A DNA stretch of 47,047 bases from a phage, in the sequence record OZ335955.1. The stretch is one strand, 5' to 3'. The notes below the pieces were generated by a model. The model was not told the origin of the DNA. It did not search any database and saw nothing but the letters and a program-made list of their open reading frames with translations. Positions 2,830 to 47,045 of the stretch are shown piece after piece. A program made the position numbers and the translations under genes. Position 1 is the first letter of the stretch. Each line of letters starts with the position of its first letter.

Positions 2830-4254
<1,425 letters not shown>

Positions 4255-4348
4255 TATAATCATAAATGCAGCTAGTCCGGCCAGACGAAAAGGTGAACGT
4301 AGACACCCTGCTGCATCCTCAATCTACGAACCTACTACGGGGTTACTC

Positions 4349-4990
4349 ATGGCAAAAAGACTCACCACGGAAGAATTCATTTCTCGCGCCAGACAAAAAC
4401 ATGGCGACAAGTGCATTTATCATAAATGTGAATACGTCAACGCAAAAACAAAAATCGTCATAACATGCAAAAAGCACGGCGATTTCACGCAATCACCAAG
4501 TGACCACCTGCAAGGAAAGGGGTGCAAGAGGTGTGCAGATATCTCAGGGTGGGATAAGAGAAAGATAACAACCTCCGAATTTGTCTTGAAGGCAAACGCG
4601 ATACACTCCAACAAGTACACATATGAAAAAGCCAAGTATAAGCAATGTCATTTAAAGGTGTGCATAACATGCAGAAGGCATGGTGATTTTTATCAATCAC
4701 CAAGTAGTCATTTAAGGGGCTTTGGTTGTCCATCGTGCAAGTTTGAATTAAATGCAGAAAGATGCAGAATGACAAAATCAGAGTTCATATCAAGGTCAAA
4801 TGAACTGCATGGTGACTCATATGACTACTCAATGGTGGAGTATAAAAACAATAACACCAAAGTTGCTATATTGTGTAAGGAGCACGGATTGTTCATGATG
4901 TCACCTGGCAATCATCTTGCTGGCACGCAAAGTACGGATTTGATTATAAAAGGGAAGGTTTTGTATATTTCCTCATGGGTGATGGTGTGA
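4349..4990 (+). CDS. homing-endonuclease-like protein, N-terminal part with three tandem ~60-aa Cys/His repeat modules
   Basis: ORF-track 4190..4990, start refined to ATG 4349 after portal stop; three repeats of pattern EFI-R--HGD-Y-Y-----N---KV-I-C--HG-F---P--HL-G-GC; ends GKVLYISSW just before a frame change. Confidence 0.45.
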   Translation: MAKRLTTEEFISRARQKHGDKCIYHKCEYVNAKTKIVITCKKHGDFTQSPSDHLQGKGCKRCADISGWDKRKITTSEFVLKANAIHSNKYTYEKAKYKQCHLKVCITCRRHGDFYQSPSSHLRGFGCPSCKFELNAERCRMTKSEFISRSNELHGDSYDYSMVEYKNNNTKVAILCKEHGLFMMSPGNHLAGTQSTDLIIKGKVLYISSWVMV

Positions 4991-5232
4991 TAAAAGTTGG
5001 CATAACAAATGATATAAGACAAAGGATTGCAAGATTATCAAGGAGGACACCTTTTGAATTTTCCTTGATTGCAAAAATAAAAACAACCGGGGAAGAAGCT
5101 GCGGCGATTGAAAAGTATTATCATAACAAATATGAATCAGCCGGTCTTTATGGTTTTGATGGTGCAACAGAGTGGTTGAAATATTCGACAGAACTTATGA
5201 ATGAGATCATGAATGAAGATACTCCGGTTTAA
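4975..5232 (+). CDS. T5orf172/GIY-YIG-like nuclease domain (C-terminal part of split gene)
   Basis: GVIKVGITNDIRQRIARLSRRTPFEF...KYYHNKYESAG resembles the T5orf172 domain; different frame from 4349..4990, overlapping by 16 nt. Confidence 0.45.
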   Translation: MGDGVIKVGITNDIRQRIARLSRRTPFEFSLIAKIKTTGEEAAAIEKYYHNKYESAGLYGFDGATEWLKYSTELMNEIMNEDTPV

Positions 5233-6163
5233 CGCAAGGCTACCTCAACCGCGCATATCACAGAGCATTACTGATCCGTTGGGCGCTGCAACCCGTCTGT
5301 CAAAGATGGATAAGGTAATAACGCGCAAATATAAGCAACTCAGGACTCGTGCGCTTGAGTTGTTTCGCACCATTCCGCATAGTCAGGTCAACGCAGAATC
5401 AAGCGAACTGTATTTCTATGACTTCAGTAGTGCGCGGGCTGCCACCTTCATGGATGAGTTGCAGGCGCTGATTGACGAGATTCTGCTTGAAGGTGATGAT
5501 TTCGGTCACGGCAGAATGTGGGCTAACGTGTTTATTGGTGATGCGTATCAGACTGGCACGCAGAAGGCTAACTCAGAACTGTCAAGCCTGTCTCCGGTTT
5601 ATACCGAACAAAGGCCGATTGCCGCGATACTCTACAGCGAGCCTTACCTTAATCGCCTGCAACTGGCATACACATCCGGATACTCAGACTGGCGCGGATT
5701 GAGTGATTATTCCCGTCAGCAACTGGCATCTGTCATTATGGAAGGCATTGCCCGGGGTGCTAATCCTCGTGATGTTGAATCTGATATCGTTAAGCGTGTC
5801 GATGTGTCTCACAGCTACGCGAAACAGATAGCGCAGACTGAAATCACCGGAACGCTACGACAGGCTCACAGGAGGGAAGTCATTGAGGCGCGCGAGGAAT
5901 TGGGTATTGAGACTGTGATGCTGTGGCAATCGGCATTAATGCGCACAACGCGCCAGACTCACGCGGCGAGACACGGACGGTTTTATACACCAGAAGAGAT
6001 TGATACGTTCTATAGCGAAGTTGCTAATCGCAGGAATTGTCACTGCGCTCAAACCCCGGCGTTATTAATGGATGGAAAACCAGTCATTCTTGAGTCATCA
6101 CAGGAAAGGCTTGATAAGCAACGCGAGGCGTGGCAATCAGTCAACAAAAAGCCCTCTAAGTGA
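5213..6163 (+). CDS. head morphogenesis protein (Mu F-like / SPP1 gp7 family)
   Basis: QTEITGT...W...RTTRQTHAARHGRFY motif block typical of the family; follows portal; true start may be downstream (about 5306). Confidence 0.75.
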   Translation: MKILRFNARLPQPRISQSITDPLGAATRLSKMDKVITRKYKQLRTRALELFRTIPHSQVNAESSELYFYDFSSARAATFMDELQALIDEILLEGDDFGHGRMWANVFIGDAYQTGTQKANSELSSLSPVYTEQRPIAAILYSEPYLNRLQLAYTSGYSDWRGLSDYSRQQLASVIMEGIARGANPRDVESDIVKRVDVSHSYAKQIAQTEITGTLRQAHRREVIEAREELGIETVMLWQSALMRTTRQTHAARHGRFYTPEEIDTFYSEVANRRNCHCAQTPALLMDGKPVILESSQERLDKQREAWQSVNKKPSK

Positions 6164-6176
6164 GGGCTTGGTTTTA
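6149..6176 (+). terminator. rho-independent terminator
   Basis: aagccctc-taagt-gagggctt hairpin overlapping the stop codon, followed by ggtttt. Confidence 0.55.
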
Positions 6177-6246: not shown

Positions 6247-6831
6247 TTAATCATCCAGTTTCACGCCGGGAATCTTGCCTGCTGCGATGGCTTCATAAAT
6301 TAGCTTGGCCTCACCCTCGCGCTTGTAATCTTGAGCTACCATTTCTAATACCGCGCAGATAGATTCAAGTACAGCCTCATGCTTCCTTTCTGATTCTGTG
6401 CGGAGTGGGCGGAACTGCGGTTTGTCGATGATGATATCCTTTGCTATTTCCGTGCCCTGCTCTACGCCGAGTATTTTAGTTATTCCATAAATAACAACCA
6501 GTTGGTCTGACGCATATTTAATTGTTACCGGATACCACTCACCGTTGTTGTCGCGATACTCACACTCACACCCCACTGGCGGTAGGCCTTCTCCGTTCCA
6601 TGCGGGCTTTTGCGATGCTGCTAGTGCGGATTCGTATTGGTCCTTGCTAATTTCAATGTCATTATCTTCCACTTCAGAATCCATCTCAATGCACCATTCT
6701 GACGGACAATCACCATTGGCATCAATGAAGTACAGCGTGGTGTTGCTGCATAAAAAACCAGCCTCCACCGCACCATCAGGCCACCCACCACGCTTAGGCA
6801 ATTCTTGAACTAACAGGTCGATAAGTTTCAT
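6247..6831 (-). CDS. hypothetical protein
   Basis: 194-aa ORF, last gene of a minus-strand cassette. Confidence 0.5.
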   Translation of the reverse strand: MKLIDLLVQELPKRGGWPDGAVEAGFLCSNTTLYFIDANGDCPSEWCIEMDSEVEDNDIEISKDQYESALAASQKPAWNGEGLPPVGCECEYRDNNGEWYPVTIKYASDQLVVIYGITKILGVEQGTEIAKDIIIDKPQFRPLRTESERKHEAVLESICAVLEMVAQDYKREGEAKLIYEAIAAGKIPGVKLDD

Positions 6832-7052
6832 TTTGTTTCTCCATCAAAAAGGATTTCTTTGTATTCATCACTAACTTCATATGCTTTATTTAGTTCAAAT
6901 ACCTCATAGGAGTTTTGACCACCTTCTCGCCATGAGTTTTTGTCATTTAGTTTTGCGGCAACAGCGTCGGCTTCATGCTTGTGTGGATAAATAGCAACGA
7001 CATTTGATGAGACGCCGCATTCGATACAACCAACATTAAATACAAGCCACAT
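6828..7052 (-). CDS. hypothetical protein
   Basis: 74-aa ORF, 4-nt overlap with downstream gene (translational coupling). Confidence 0.45.
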   Translation of the reverse strand: MWLVFNVGCIECGVSSNVVAIYPHKHEADAVAAKLNDKNSWREGGQNSYEVFELNKAYEVSDEYKEILFDGETK

Positions 7053-7062
7053 AATTATTCTC

Positions 7063-7350
7063 CTAACGCCTTATTAACCGCCGCATGCGCATTATCAAGA
7101 GCGCGGCGCTTGCTTGATGTTGTCCAGCCTTGCCGTATTGGTCGTCGTAGATTTCAAGTAGTTGCTGGAGTGCTGATAGTAGCTCTGGCGATTCTGCGAT
7201 TAATTTTGCGTTATGCCATTGTTCGGTTTTATCACCGTTATATGTTGGAGTTAACGCAATCTCAACGCCAATATCCGAGACAACATCTGGCGCGTTATCG
7301 TCACCATTAACAACCTCCCACACACCCGGCGTACCTTTAAATTTTCTCAT
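7063..7350 (-). CDS. hypothetical protein
   Basis: ORF-track 7063..7362 starts at GTG; ATG at 7350 preferred; product contains GTPGVWEV...NAKLIAESPELL motif seen in many enterobacterial phage proteins. Confidence 0.45.
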   Translation of the reverse strand: MRKFKGTPGVWEVVNGDDNAPDVVSDIGVEIALTPTYNGDKTEQWHNAKLIAESPELLSALQQLLEIYDDQYGKAGQHQASAALLIMRMRRLIRR

Positions 7351-7358
7351 CACCAATC

Positions 7359-7502
7359 TCACTTAATATATTCAATGATTTCGCATTCACGTATCTGCAC
7401 CAGACCAAATGGCGCAACCACTTTACCGCACGGACGGATTTTGATTTGCTCAAGGCAGAACACTCCGCAGCGTCCGTTTTCTTTGAATTTGACCATTACC
7501 AT
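7359..7502 (-). CDS. small Cys-containing protein (47 aa)
   Basis: MVMVKFKENGRCGVFCLEQIKIRPCGK...; not in ORF track (<60 aa). Confidence 0.25.
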   Translation of the reverse strand: MVMVKFKENGRCGVFCLEQIKIRPCGKVVAPFGLVQIRECEIIEYIK

Positions 7503-7511
7503 GATTTAACC

Positions 7512-7898
7512 TTAAAAAATAATTAATGTAGGCTGCAATTCTTCTTCATACCAAGTCCAGCCAATACACCGCCCTTCCATGGCGTCAATGTAAGGCTTTA
7601 CCCAATCCAAAAATGCCTGAATCTCACCGCTATAGTTTTTGATATCGCTGCGACTGAAGATGTATTGCTCGTCGCTGTAGTCAAATTTTGGGCAACTATT
7701 AACTACGGATGGGTGATGGTAAAAGCTACAGTAGTTACCAATAGAATCCCAGCGCGGTAGTGTGAAAAATTCATGCTCAGGAAGCTTTACCGGCCTGTCG
7801 GCACCAGCAAACATATACTGGATTACATCCATCACCTCTTTCGGTACACCCCCCCCCTTAATCTGACACTTTAAAACCAACTCTGTGTACATTCCCAT
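7512..7898 (-). CDS. hypothetical protein (contains G9 homopolymer in coding strand)
   Basis: 128-aa ORF, first gene after the minus promoter at 7931..7959; run of nine C at 7849..7857 encodes KGGGV. Confidence 0.5.
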   Translation of the reverse strand: MGMYTELVLKCQIKGGGVPKEVMDVIQYMFAGADRPVKLPEHEFFTLPRWDSIGNYCSFYHHPSVVNSCPKFDYSDEQYIFSRSDIKNYSGEIQAFLDWVKPYIDAMEGRCIGWTWYEEELQPTLIIF

Positions 7899-7930
7899 CT
7901 TTTATTCCTCACCGTTTGATTGATGTAGAT

Positions 7931-7959
7931 ACTATACGCCACCGCTCAATCTACGTCAA
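7931..7959 (-). promoter_or_regulatory. sigma70-like promoter TTGACG-N17-TATAGT (conserved family)
   Basis: reverse strand reads TTGACGTAGATTGAGCGGTGGCGTATAGT followed by ATCTACATCA; divergent from an extended -10 (TGaTAGAAT, 7968..7976) on the plus strand. Confidence 0.55.
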
Positions 7960-8002: not shown

Positions 8003-8281
8003 ATGAAACTATCGCAACGCGGCATGGAGACGCTTGGAATCACCGATGCCGTGGATATATCGCCTTACATCACCACTGACACAACGCAGAATCAGTTCGA
8101 CGCGCTGACAAGCCTTGCCACCGACATCGGCATTGACGTGTTCCGTAAATCAACACTTCTGAAGAAACACAACCTGCGCTGCTTCTCATGTGCTGTTGCG
8201 CATTTCATCGTGTGGGGTGAGAAGACTGACGACAAAGCTAAGCGCAAAACTGAAAAAGAGGTTTACTGGTATGGCTATTAG
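8003..8281 (+). CDS. lysozyme-like protein, C-terminal domain only (probable remnant)
   Basis: TQNQFDALTSLATDIGIDVFRKSTLLKKHNL...F..W matches the C-terminal half of P22 gp19 / T4 e-type lysozymes; N-terminal catalytic E/D/T region absent; strong RBS AGGAGG. Confidence 0.5.
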   Translation: MKLSQRGMETLGITDAVDISPYITTDTTQNQFDALTSLATDIGIDVFRKSTLLKKHNLRCFSCAVAHFIVWGEKTDDKAKRKTEKEVYWYGY

Positions 8282-8735
8282 CAAAAACATGAAGGCGTTT
8301 CTGGATATGCTGGCGTACAGCGAGGGCACGGATAACGGGCGACAGAAAACCAATAATCATGGTTATGATGTAATTGTTGGCGGCTCGCTATTTACTGACT
8401 ACTCAGACCACCCGAGAAAGCTGATTAGCCTGCCAAAGCTGGGTATCCAATCCACTGCCGCCGGACGCTATCAGGTGCTGGCTAAGTTTTATGACGCGTA
8501 CAAAAAGCAGTTGCGCCTGCCTGACTTCTCCCCCGCATCGCAGGACGCCATTGCAATGCAGCTAATCCGTGAATGCAAAGCAACCGCAGATATTGAGGCT
8601 GGTCGCATTGCCGATGCCATCCATAAATGCCGTTCCCGCTGGGCTTCGTTGCCGGGCGCTGGCTATGGTCAGCATGAGCAGAAACTGGATAAGCTGATTC
8701 AGGTATACAAGGCCGCTGGCGGAGGTGTGGCATGA
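8271..8735 (+). CDS. R: endolysin, lambda R-type
   Basis: ORF-track 8190..8735 starts at GTG; ATG at 8271; product MAISKNMKAFLDMLAYSEGTDNGRQKTNNHGYDVIVGG...WASLPGAGYGQ is near-colinear with lambda R. Confidence 0.85.
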   Translation: MAISKNMKAFLDMLAYSEGTDNGRQKTNNHGYDVIVGGSLFTDYSDHPRKLISLPKLGIQSTAAGRYQVLAKFYDAYKKQLRLPDFSPASQDAIAMQLIRECKATADIEAGRIADAIHKCRSRWASLPGAGYGQHEQKLDKLIQVYKAAGGGVA

Positions 8736-10309: not shown

Positions 10310-10798
10310 TTACTTTAATGCTCCGTGATTTTTATGGAAACAATATTTTTCCTCAGCTGCTTTTCTGCATTCTGCAGCCATTGACAAGTTTGAGAATCTG
10401 CCAAGCGCAATCTGCTTTCCGTTCACGGCAATCTTTGCATACCATTTCTTACTCTTGTTATCCCAACTAACTCCGACAACATTACTCGTGTTATCAGATC
10501 GCATAGAAAGATTCTTAGCGTTCTGCTTTCTGCTTACCAATCTGAGATTCTCAATCCTATTATCATCACGAATGTGGTTTATATGATCAATCTCCATCCC
10601 CTCTGGTATCTCACCATTGTGCATTTCCCAAATTATTCTATGCATCAGTCGCACTTTTCCAAAGCAATGAACCTGCATGTACCCATTACCTGCCATGCTT
10701 CCTGCCAGCCTCCCTATTTTCATGTTTCTGTTTGTTTTTATCTTCCAATATAGCAACCCATCACGGTATTCGAACACATCATTCCAATCCATCATCAC
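10310..10798 (-). CDS. HNH homing endonuclease (HNH + AP2-like domain)
   Basis: EIDHINHIRDDNRIENLRLVSRKQN HNH motif followed by VVGVSWDNKSKKWYAKI AP2-like region. Confidence 0.85.
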   Translation of the reverse strand: MMMDWNDVFEYRDGLLYWKIKTNRNMKIGRLAGSMAGNGYMQVHCFGKVRLMHRIIWEMHNGEIPEGMEIDHINHIRDDNRIENLRLVSRKQNAKNLSMRSDNTSNVVGVSWDNKSKKWYAKIAVNGKQIALGRFSNLSMAAECRKAAEEKYCFHKNHGALK

Positions 10799-17788: not shown

Positions 17789-17973
17789 TTAATATCCTCA
17801 TCATCGAAGTGGCGTTCATTCCATCTTTCTGCCGCATCTTCGGCACCGTACTCGCTTCTCTTTTCAGTGCCACAATAACCGCATTCAACAACAAACCTGT
17901 CCTGCCAGTTATTATCAATGAATGCCGATGGTGTATTTCCGCAAAACGGGCATATTTTTAATTTAATCATCAC
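17767..17973 (-). CDS. Lar-family restriction-alleviation-like zinc-ribbon protein
   Basis: KICPFCGNTP...FVVECGYCG...ERWNERH; same pattern as the 11761..12009 product. Confidence 0.55.
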   Translation of the reverse strand: MMIKLKICPFCGNTPSAFIDNNWQDRFVVECGYCGTEKRSEYGAEDAAERWNERHFDDEDIKCLQNHS

Positions 17974-18779
17974 ATCTTCTCCAGAATTGCCATAACCTCG
18001 TGAATGTCAGCAACAGGAATCTGGATAAACTCCTCATCCTCTGCCACCACATGACCAGCAGGAAGAATCACATGGTCTGCTGGCTTCAATAACTCAATCA
18101 GACGGTCTACTGGCTTAATCTTTTTCGACTTCAGCACTTTTGCCGTGACTTTGTCTTTACCCTGCGCCTTCGCTTCTTCGACTGCCTCGTCGATAACTTT
18201 AATCGCATCTTCACCATGCTCACGCGTTACTGCTACGGCGTTTGCATAGCTGATTTGCCCGGCATTGATTCGCGCTTTAACTTCCGCTGGCACATCACCC
18301 AACGACAGGTGCATCTGCACATCAGATACTGAGCGGCCTACCTTCCTGGCGATCTCTTCGTTAGTCCAGCCAAAGCCTTTTAGTCGCGTGTAAGCCTTTG
18401 CGCGCTCAAACGGGTCAAGCTGCTTCCCCTGACTGGATGACACCATGAATGCAATTTTATCCGCCTCATCGCCAGTGAAATCCTTGCACTCAATACGAAC
18501 TATTGGTGCGCCGCGCTCAATGGCACGCAATGCGCCGAGATAGCGATGCTGACCATCAAGAATGCGGATTCCCTTCTCGTCAGGAATAACTGTTAATGCC
18601 GGTAGTGGCTGACCAGACTCCCAGCACTGCGCGAAATATTCCACATGTTGCTCATCTGCTTCACGGATGTTGTATCCCGGTTCCAGATAGATTTGCTCCA
18701 CTGGCACGAGATAGGTTTTGTTAACGGCAATGCCGTTGCGGGTTTCTTTGTCTGAATAGATTTTGCTGAGTGTTTTCAT
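17970..18779 (-). CDS. ParB-like nuclease domain protein
   Basis: IRILDGQHRYLGALRA motif typical of the ParB/Srx N-terminal domain. Confidence 0.6.
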   Translation of the reverse strand: MKTLSKIYSDKETRNGIAVNKTYLVPVEQIYLEPGYNIREADEQHVEYFAQCWESGQPLPALTVIPDEKGIRILDGQHRYLGALRAIERGAPIVRIECKDFTGDEADKIAFMVSSSQGKQLDPFERAKAYTRLKGFGWTNEEIARKVGRSVSDVQMHLSLGDVPAEVKARINAGQISYANAVAVTREHGEDAIKVIDEAVEEAKAQGKDKVTAKVLKSKKIKPVDRLIELLKPADHVILPAGHVVAEDEEFIQIPVADIHEVMAILEKM

Positions 18780-34424: not shown

Positions 34425-35024
34425 CTAAGGTTTATACGCCCAAAAAAATCCATTCCTGCATTTAACGCCATTTTTTATTTGATACTCAATTGAATAACCA
34501 CAGTCACGCGCCGCCGAATTATATGATGGATATTCACAAATAAGATTGTAATCAGAATCAAACTTCATGACTTTCTTGCACCTTCTTCCGCTCTTGTTTA
34601 CTCCAGACAATATATCCTGCTTTTGATGATTTCTATTCATCCTCCACGTCCCAAGCCTTATGTTGTCAAAACTATAACCAATAAAATCATTAATTCTGTC
34701 AACGCTTGGCTTTAAATCACAAAGATAACCAGATGAAACCCATTCATCATAAAGCTTTTTGAATCCATTGCTGTATAGCCATGATGACAATTCAGATTTT
34801 GAGTAAGGCATTTCACCATGCCCTCTGAGTTTATTGTGTCTTTTCTGCGTCTTGTATATAACCCTGATTACACCTTTTTCTGTTTTGTCATAAGCATCAC
34901 CAACATTCTTTAGATTTTCTCTAACATCACTCTTTGTGCAATCCTTGCACTTCATCCCTGCGCCTTTATAGAAAGAACCTTCATCCTTTTCAATTCCGCA
35001 TCTTTTACATAATTTCATATACAA
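34425..35024 (-). CDS. homing-endonuclease-like protein with degenerate HNH motif
   Basis: N-terminal Cys4 zinc ribbon, central DRIN...DNIRLGTWRMNRNH resembling a modified HNH motif, C-terminal KVMKFDSDYNLICEYPSYNSAARD...GFFWAY DNA-binding-like region. Confidence 0.4.
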   Translation of the reverse strand: MYMKLCKRCGIEKDEGSFYKGAGMKCKDCTKSDVRENLKNVGDAYDKTEKGVIRVIYKTQKRHNKLRGHGEMPYSKSELSSWLYSNGFKKLYDEWVSSGYLCDLKPSVDRINDFIGYSFDNIRLGTWRMNRNHQKQDILSGVNKSGRRCKKVMKFDSDYNLICEYPSYNSAARDCGYSIEYQIKNGVKCRNGFFWAYKP

Positions 35025-46526: not shown

Positions 46527-47045
46527 ATGAGGAATCTATATATGCTTACGCAAGCAGAATTAAAACACATCCTTGATTACAATCCTGACACCGGAATTTT
46601 CACATGGAAAAACCCACACAAGCAGGGAAGGGCTAAACCCGGGAAGCCAGCAGGAACAATAAAATTATGCGGTACCGTTGGTAGCAAACGGCCGTATCAC
46701 TATATTCATTTTGGAAGAAAGTGGTATAGATCGCATAGGCTGGCTTGGCTTTACATGACTGGTAGTTGGCCTGAAAAAGAAATAGACCACATAAACAACA
46801 ATACGCTTGATAATCGTTTCGTTAATCTGCGAGAGGCTGACCATCAACAAAATGGTTACAACAAAAAGCTACAGGCAAACAACACGTCAGGGGTTAAGGG
46901 TGTGTATTGGGATAAATCAAAATGCAAGTGGATGGCAAGATTAAATATAAATGGCAGGATGGTTAATCTTGGCAGGTTCGCCAACATTGAAGATGCAGTC
47001 AAAAAGATAATGGAAGAAAGAGAGAAACATCACGGGGAGTTTTAA
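46527..47045 (+). CDS. HNH homing endonuclease (HNH + AP2-like domain)
   Basis: EIDHINNNTLDNRFVNLREADHQQN motif and GVKGVYWDKSKCKWMARL AP2-like region; between putative terS and terL. Confidence 0.85.
   Translation: MRNLYMLTQAELKHILDYNPDTGIFTWKNPHKQGRAKPGKPAGTIKLCGTVGSKRPYHYIHFGRKWYRSHRLAWLYMTGSWPEKEIDHINNNTLDNRFVNLREADHQQNGYNKKLQANNTSGVKGVYWDKSKCKWMARLNINGRMVNLGRFANIEDAVKKIMEEREKHHGEF

Follow-up and report, generated by a model that had tools for sequence, protein, structure and literature searches.

A leftward five-gene cassette between the head and lysis genes of a Skatevirus-like phage is probably an early, largely non-essential accessory operon

The window analyzed here, sequence record OZ335955.1 (47,047 nucleotides, nt), comprises the whole, or nearly the whole, of a siphophage genome (about 47 kb). 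Between its head-morphogenesis gene and its lysis genes lies a cassette of five genes on the opposite strand, at positions 6247–7959. We propose that this cassette is probably an accessory operon of the kind found in the ea or exo-xis regions of lambdoid phages; that is, an early, sigma-70-driven and largely non-essential operon, whose small modular proteins would bind host components. This reading is carried by the gene structure of the cassette, its conservation and mosaicism among related phages, its dispensability in some of those relatives, and the homology of one of its proteins to genes of known ea regions.

Gene structure, conservation and dispensability

The original prediction described five leftward open reading frames (ORFs) of 128, 47, 95, 74 and 194 amino acids (aa), with a promoter of their own at 7931–7959, and this description was confirmed by the ORF list, a consensus scan and the existence of homologues. 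In their order from the promoter, the genes are referred to here as E, A, B, D and C. D and C overlap by 4 nt, with the stop of D over the start of C, and the remaining intergenic gaps in the ORF list are about 9–10 nt. The ORF of gene B spans 7063–7362 and would encode 99 aa from a GTG codon; homologues, however, use the start that corresponds to the ATG at 7350, which gives 95 aa. The GC skew (the strand imbalance of guanine and cytosine) is negative over 6–8 kb, as in other leftward blocks of the window. The elements of the cassette and its flanks are as follows.

7931–7959, minus strand: putative sigma-70-type promoter, TTGACG-17-TATAGT, consensus score 10/12
7920–7959: operator-like dyad with arms TTGATGTAGAT (7920–7930) and ATCTACGTCAA (7949–7959)
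7512–7898, minus strand: gene E, 128 aa, promoter-proximal, in the variable slot; PHROG 4334, unknown function; predicted ferredoxin-like alpha+beta fold
7359–7502, minus strand: gene A, 47 aa, conserved core gene; PHROG 21280
7063–7350, minus strand: gene B, 95 aa, modular, with an N-terminal GTPGxW...NAKLIAxSPELL module; frameshifted; PHROG 1273
6828–7052, minus strand: gene D, 74 aa, unknown function
6247–6831, minus strand: gene C, 194 aa, mosaic protein
6149–6169, both strands: bidirectional intrinsic terminator, 8-bp stem with 5 G-C pairs, T-runs on both strands
5213–6163, strand opposite to the cassette and convergent with it: Phage_Mu_F head-morphogenesis gene, flank downstream of the cassette
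8003–8281, strand opposite to the cassette: phage-lysozyme gene, flank upstream of the cassette promoter

The terminator ends both the cassette and the convergent head-morphogenesis gene, and the same terminator was annotated by the depositors of phage ASO78B. An Rfam scan gave sub-threshold leader-like matches at this position only, which we attribute to the terminator hairpin.

To place the cassette among its relatives, the locus was compared in the window and in 10 annotated phages, i.e., 11 loci in total, by all-against-all BLASTP. The cassette region is 88–91% identical to that of the Skatevirus cluster, namely NX263, Akira, Skate, Seszw_1, swi2 and the BASEL phages Bas77–79; these Salmonella and E. 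coli phages belong to Skatevirus according to published taxonomy (PMC11990801) and record annotation. A leftward cassette lies between the same two flanking genes in 10 of 10 relatives. Its backbone consists, in order, of the promoter, a variable first slot, A, B, a position held by D, by a 71-aa gene unrelated to D (gene G) or by nothing, C, and the terminator. Gene A is found in all 11 loci and occurs in 146 phage records; its identity is 81–96% across nine of the relatives and drops to 57% in Bas81. Genes B and C are each found in 10 of the 11 loci. Gene D is found in 12 phage records, and is 97% identical in Bas81. The first slot contains E in three loci (the window, HC6 and LPST10), and elsewhere six other unrelated genes or an HNH endonuclease gene. 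Some relatives also carry, at the distal end, an extra gene for a 64-aa hydrophobic, probably membrane-spanning protein. Kagunavirus St162 and Nonanavirus SP069 also carry gene E, in their case within structural modules and on the opposite strand. Elsewhere in the window, the five cassette proteins have no paralogues, and none of the phage records searched spans at least 80% of the cassette DNA. The idea that the cassette was inserted into its present position was thus not borne out, since it is present in all 11 loci and only the first slot varies; rather, it is a fixed feature of the whole Skatevirus-like cluster, in which this slot alone comes and goes.

Protein homologues were found for all five ORFs, and the median ratio of nonsynonymous to synonymous substitution rates (dN/dS) is 0.15 for A and 0.16 for D. 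These are therefore real genes rather than chance ORFs, and the two ratios indicate that A and D are under purifying selection. In a 47,027-bp contig from a close relative, we also observed a 72-aa protein (P0291) in which the first 26 residues of B are fused to the C-terminal 46 of D; that is, a deletion has joined two cassette genes.

Whether the cassette is needed can be assessed from phages that have lost parts of it. Iterative CRISPR-based genome reduction of the Skatevirus seszw led to the spontaneous loss of 'genes 69-71' (Yuan et al., PMC9825161), and we find that these genes lie in the cassette. In the deposited genomes of the seszw mutants the cassette is present in several intermediate deletion classes, in which homologues of B, C, F, G and I were lost. 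In the smallest viable mutant, of 36,655 bp, only A is left between the head-assembly and lysozyme genes. A naturally occurring counterpart is LPST10, whose cassette content is HNH-E-A, without B, D and C. By proxy, these seszw mutants and LPST10 indicate that the cassette, A aside, is mostly non-essential. Gene A, which is seszw gene 73, is the only one of the cassette genes that every listed seszw genome contains, and we regard it as a conserved core with a possibly essential role. It must be noted that short genes received fewer spacers in the genome reduction (PMC9825161), a caveat on the retention of A in the mutants. The description of the locus as an accessory cassette is therefore appropriate for a unit that is self-contained, mosaic and mostly dispensable, but it does not extend to A, which none of the 11 loci and none of the reduced seszw genomes examined lacks.

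Gene C, gene B and the possible functions of the cassette proteins

The connection to known accessory regions is provided by gene C. Over its full length, C is 34% identical to BTP1_020 and 36% identical to gp34 of the Erwinia phage phiEt88, with expectation values (E) of 1e-32 to 1e-33. In the P22-like phage BTP1, BTP1_020 is part of the ea region and directly adjoins xis, with eaA on its other side, in the position held by eaC in P22. In phiEt88, a DksA-like gene lies on one side of gp34 and the excisionase gene, two genes further downstream, on the other. Both phages carry integrase and excisionase genes, and in both the C homologue is far from the structural genes. BLASTP of A, B, D and E against the genes tested from P22, lambda, BTP1 and phiEt88 found no homologue, and none of the five cassette proteins showed BLASTP similarity to lambda Ea22, Ea8.5 or Orf60a/61/63, or to P22 EaA-EaI. 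The cassette resembles the ea and exo-xis regions in kind, with one gene family, that of C, common to both.

The C family comprises more than 3000 homologues, and its architecture is mosaic. An invariant N-terminal helix is followed by hypervariable residues 21–60, a conserved WNGEGLPPVGCECE linker and a predicted Tudor/SH3-like barrel; the distal part consists of a helical hairpin that varies and a C-terminus that does not, IYxAIAAGKIPGVKLDD. In phage ZK22, the family member (279 aa, at 1800–2639 of the ZK22 locus) is extended by an inserted module, WIEWGGGECPV..., which separates the hypervariable segment from the barrel; the C scaffold can therefore take up further small modules. A Pfam scan of 40 members of the family yielded one marginal match to SUKH-1 (E 0.046, 1 of 40), which we treated as noise.

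Gene B is modular as well. Within the cluster its N-terminal module is swapped between relatives, while its C-terminal segment is constant (...LLSALQQLLEIYDDxSGKVWTTSSKRRALDNARAAVNKALGE). In the window, a DNA alignment with Akira, swi2, NX263 and ASO78B reveals a 1-nt deletion between 7128 and 7127, such that B diverges from all relatives after codon 74 and its last 21 residues are out of frame. In another frame, the DNA encodes the conserved C-terminus of the relatives, GWTTSSKRRALDNAHAAVNKALGE*, as far as the ancestral TAA at 7055–7057; the DNA downstream of the deletion, this TAA included, is still conserved. The ancestral form of B would have had about 98 aa, of which the conserved C-terminal 24 residues are lost here. 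This 1-nt deletion, which replaces the conserved C-terminus of the 95-aa gene, is newly described. The ORF had been noted as one with a widespread GTPGVWEV motif; the motif is indeed present, but the ORF is the frameshifted form of a gene of about 98 aa. The same 95-aa form occurs in a database cluster of 17 member sequences, and an intact 98-aa form, 97% identical, also exists. The frameshift may be a sequencing error. The loss of the conserved residues fits relaxed selection on B, and the most likely reading is that B is decaying in this genome, having recently lost the part that is most conserved in its own lineage.

Enterobacterial Ead-like proteins have a motif similar to that of B, G-x-W ... 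NA-x-(L/F)-IA ... LL-x-L. Depositors have labeled homologues of B as 'Ead protein' (ZK22) and 'ead/Ea22-like family protein' (Yersinia phage P400). B homologues also carry the precomputed label PF27050. The PF13935 profile gave no match for B and four of its homologues at E up to 10, and none for the Ead-labeled P400 and ZK22 proteins at E up to 1, while lambda Ea22, used as control, scored 1.1e-28. In pairwise comparisons of B with lambda Ea22, BLASTP gave an E of 1.5 over 6 residues and hhalign a probability of 0.4%; no cassette protein matched P22 EaD or lambda Ea22 in BLASTP. With profile and pairwise tests both negative, we rejected the assignment of B to the Ead/Ea22 family (PF13935, IPR025153). 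Ea22 proteins combine a short N-terminal segment with a long coiled coil in the center and a portable domain at the C-terminus (PMC10834534). B is modular, with a variable N-terminal module and a constant C-terminal helix; it has about 95 residues and does not contain a long central coiled coil.

That the five proteins have no recognizable signature, as originally proposed, is supported by searches of Pfam, NCBIfam, PADLOC and the PDB, none of which gave a family of known function. Pfam, NCBIfam and PADLOC returned nothing useful, including no nuclease, toxin or membrane domain; in PHROGs, only families of 'unknown function' were matched, with no structural or lysis category, and D had no match in PHROGs or Pfam; and sequence searches of the PDB, with single sequences and with profiles, gave nothing below E 0.01. 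In the published literature, we found no mention of the cassette locus tags, the PHROG identifiers or PF27050. The folds predicted for C (a Tudor/SH3-like barrel) and for E (ferredoxin-like) are generic binding folds. The E family includes about 1600 clusters; 10 of its longer relatives, inspected for domain fusions, had no informative Pfam domain. E has invariant Glu, Lys, His, Ser and Cys positions.

These results bear on the notion that the cassette encodes anti-defense proteins. According to this explanation, E, B and/or C would inhibit host immunity, and the swapping of modules would reflect an arms race with variable defense proteins. Such a role is possible, though in our view unlikely. 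It would be consistent with the early-type promoter, the accessory behavior and mosaicism of the cassette, the hypervariable segment of C between invariant termini, the swappable N-terminal modules of B, the dispensability of the genes on a permissive host, and the presence of unrelated small genes in the first slot of different relatives. However, Skatevirus isolates are markedly sensitive to restriction-modification systems and to Old, as described from phenotyping of the BASEL collection (PMC11990801). Moreover, in the PADLOC, Pfam, NCBIfam and PDB searches, no sequence or fold similarity was found between the cassette proteins and characterized anti-defense inhibitors (Ocr, Ard, Acr and similar proteins), and members of the C family also lie in ea regions, in phages that carry integrase and excisionase genes; of such regions, the lambda exo-xis genes that have been studied affect development, not immunity. 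The earlier suggestion of an anti-defense function is therefore left with no specific indication in its favor, as the PADLOC, Pfam and NCBIfam searches and the sequence and fold searches of the PDB found nothing relevant to it.

It is far less probable, to the point of being nearly negligible, that the proteins assist head assembly or lysis, or are minor virion components, encoded beside the modules they serve. The position of the cassette, with the Mu-F head gene on one side and the endolysin, holin and spanin genes on the other, is the sole argument for this explanation. The cassette is on the opposite strand, with a promoter and a terminator of its own; its proteins match no virion or assembly family, be it a structural or lysis category in PHROGs or a family in Pfam; seszw mutants without B, G, C, F and I are viable and still form phage, as LPST10 does without B, D and C; and the homologues of C in BTP1 and phiEt88 are found in early-left regions, far from structural genes.

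Promoter, dyad and proposed mode of action

The cassette promoter, which is followed by a GAGG ribosome-binding site, is retained almost base-for-base in nine of the 10 relatives. The exception is Seszw_1, which lacks the 17-nt spacer; there (2207–2293 of its locus, and also 34861–34971 of a further seszw sequence) GTTGACG is directly followed by TATAGTATCTACATCAA. Within the window, a near-identical copy of the promoter is found at 19476..19448 on the minus strand, with the same first 14 nt. The dyad is an 11-nt inverted repeat, 91% complementary, with one arm on the -35 box and the other near the predicted start. It is likewise retained in nine of 10 relatives, and Seszw_1 has lost the spacer between the arms.

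The core of the dyad is part of a larger set. The 10-mer TGAYGTAGAW occurs at 13 sites in the window, as compared with 0.35 expected; all sites are intergenic, and most are paired, in inverted or direct orientation.

1696, 1774, 7921, 7949, 11029, 11055, 19435, 19466, 24700, 37607, 40246, 44222 and 44239: TGAYGTAGAW sites

These sites overlap the -35 boxes or the start regions of promoter regions. They are found upstream of the gene for exonuclease VIII, of the helicase operon and the other leftward cassettes, and also of a small gene that follows the terminase gene. The minimal seszw genome still has 11 of them. The cassette promoter thus belongs to a set of intergenic sites with a common dyad motif, which is a new observation. 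From their distribution, the sites look like the operator set of a phage-wide regulon. Because the motif is shared with promoter regions of replication and recombination genes, the cassette would fall into the non-structural transcription class, and a common regulator is suggested. In the operon downstream of the twin promoter at 19448–19476, we observed a 269-aa protein with ParB-HTH (helix-turn-helix) and KorB domains (17970–18779, minus strand), and the minimal seszw genome has retained a 98%-identical copy of it. The analogy to KorB of plasmid RK2 would make this protein a candidate for the dyad binder, albeit a purely hypothetical one.

Based on these features, we envisage the following mode of action. 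Host RNA polymerase would start at the near-consensus sigma-70 promoter, where the dyad TTGAYGTAGAT / ATCTACRTCAA covers the -35 box and the start. As the 10-mer also stands ahead of the exonuclease and helicase genes and of the other leftward cassettes, the cassette would be expressed with the non-structural (early or middle) genes and not with the flanking head and lysis genes, and the factor that binds the dyad would act as its switch. Transcription would then proceed through the five close-packed genes to the bidirectional terminator. The products would be small proteins with no recognizable catalytic domain: A as the conserved core; B and C with constant docking segments and swappable modules, including the Tudor/SH3-like barrel; and the ferredoxin-like E from the variable first slot. 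Most likely, these products would bind host proteins or nucleic acids and thereby condition the infected cell, with an effect that would matter in some hosts and not on a permissive laboratory host.

Several considerations weigh against this proposal. The activity and timing of the promoter are deduced from consensus matches and from the genes that share the motif, and the binding of host factors is the default inference from the size and predicted fold of the proteins. E, with its invariant residues, could be an enzyme of an unrecognized type. A is never lost and may be essential, in which case the term 'accessory' may not fit the operon as a whole. In Seszw_1, whose promoter lacks the spacer, the cassette may already be poorly expressed, which would make seszw a weaker general test of dispensability. 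Lastly, the reduced seszw mutants have a lower burst size overall (PMC9825161), so the cassette may contribute to fitness.

The shared promoter motif also bears on an explanation in which the locus is a recombination hot spot. Its cargo would be selfish or competitive, such as homing-associated genes or genes that exclude co-infecting phages, and would bring little benefit in a naive host. We consider this very unlikely. It could account for the HNH gene in the first slot of LPST10, the HNH genes annotated at the locus in Sf11 and Bas80, the GIY-YIG and HNH genes in neighboring gaps of the window, the 64-aa hydrophobic protein added distally in some relatives, and the recurrence of E on the opposite strand in structural modules of unrelated phages. 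It does not, however, account for the conservation under purifying selection, across the cluster, of A and D and of the constant segments in B and C, nor for the failure to find a nuclease, toxin or membrane domain in the five genes of the window. Furthermore, the promoter and its dyad are shared with replication genes, which suggests that the cassette is integrated into the phage's own program.

A more specific version of the early accessory operon, which we regard as quite unlikely, is that B and C are adaptors. The N- and C-termini of C and the C-terminal helix of B, as invariant segments, would attach to a single conserved partner, which could be A, the protein that is never lost, or a conserved host machine, while the swappable modules, in the middle or at the N-terminus, would target variable host factors. 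Expression would be switched through the operator regulon, perhaps by the KorB/ParB-like protein at 17970–18779. If so, the cassette would be a plug-and-play hub for host targeting or counter-defense, common to Skate-like, P22-like and lambdoid phages.

Neighboring genes, significance and comparison with known systems

A number of features were noted in the surroundings of the cassette. The endolysin region, 8003–8735, consists of two overlapping ORFs of 92 and 154 aa. In the 92-aa ORF, the match to the Phage_lysozyme domain is confined to the C-terminal half of that domain; the 154-aa ORF has no Pfam match, and its NX263 counterpart is annotated as glycoside hydrolase family 104. The corresponding region of the relatives is likewise annotated as two endolysins. 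Between the portal and head-morphogenesis genes, at 4190–5232, the window has two extra ORFs that are absent from Bas77. The first encodes 266 aa with a Cys/His-rich motif that occurs three times, and has no Pfam match; the second encodes an 85-aa GIY-YIG / T5orf172 protein. The pair has the appearance of an inserted homing endonuclease. A protein with HNH_3 and AP2 domains, of the homing-endonuclease type, is encoded within a second leftward cassette (10310–10798, minus strand), and an HNH endonuclease is encoded at the right end of the window (46527–47045).

The window provides one more allele combination at a mosaic locus that sequenced siphophages of Salmonella, E. coli and Klebsiella, well over a hundred of them, already carry, and that most of the cassette can be removed was already known from the seszw experiments. 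Nonetheless, the combination of a fixed backbone (the promoter with its dyad, A, B, D or G, C, and the terminator) with one variable slot makes the locus a tractable site for the study of ea-type genes, and a 47-aa gene that resists deletion is identified. Two large families of unknown function, those of C and E, are seen to be modular or to have a predicted generic fold, with no known relatives. In phage engineering, the locus would probably be a safe site for the insertion of a payload, provided that A and the promoter are kept.

Among known systems, phage morons, which are separate transcription units within a conserved module of genes, resemble the cassette in that they have their own promoter and terminator, are oriented opposite to the surrounding late genes, and are dispensable. 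The resemblance extends to gene E, which comes and goes between close relatives (3 of 11 loci). Classical morons are defined in prophages and are expressed from the repressed prophage. Unlike morons, the cassette as a whole is not sporadic but present in 11 of 11 loci, and its promoter motif is shared with replication and recombination promoter regions.

The closer comparison is with the lambdoid exo-xis region and the ea region of P22. It is not an exact one. The Mu-F head gene and the endolysin genes flank the cassette, in place of the recombination genes and int/xis of a temperate phage; no integrase, xis or recombination genes lie around it, and it has its own promoter with a dyad instead of pL. 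No integrase was identified among the window ORFs examined, and the Skatevirus-like cluster is described as lytic (PMC11990801; ZK22 paper). On the other hand, the exo-xis genes are described as very early, non-essential, and mosaic with portable domains (PMC10834534). Like the genes in those regions (ea22, ea8.5 and orf60a/61/63 in lambdoid phages, eaA-eaI in P22), its genes are small and mostly of unknown function. Both are non-essential for plaque formation, the cassette by proxy, in relatives, and with A excepted. Both are highly mosaic, and Ea22 likewise combines a constant part with swappable C-terminal domains (PMC10834534). The ea and exo-xis genes are transcribed early and away from structural genes, as would be the cassette according to its predicted sigma-70 promoter and shared motif. 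Taken together, we judge the cassette to be most likely an ordinary, largely non-essential early accessory operon, at a locus of a known kind.

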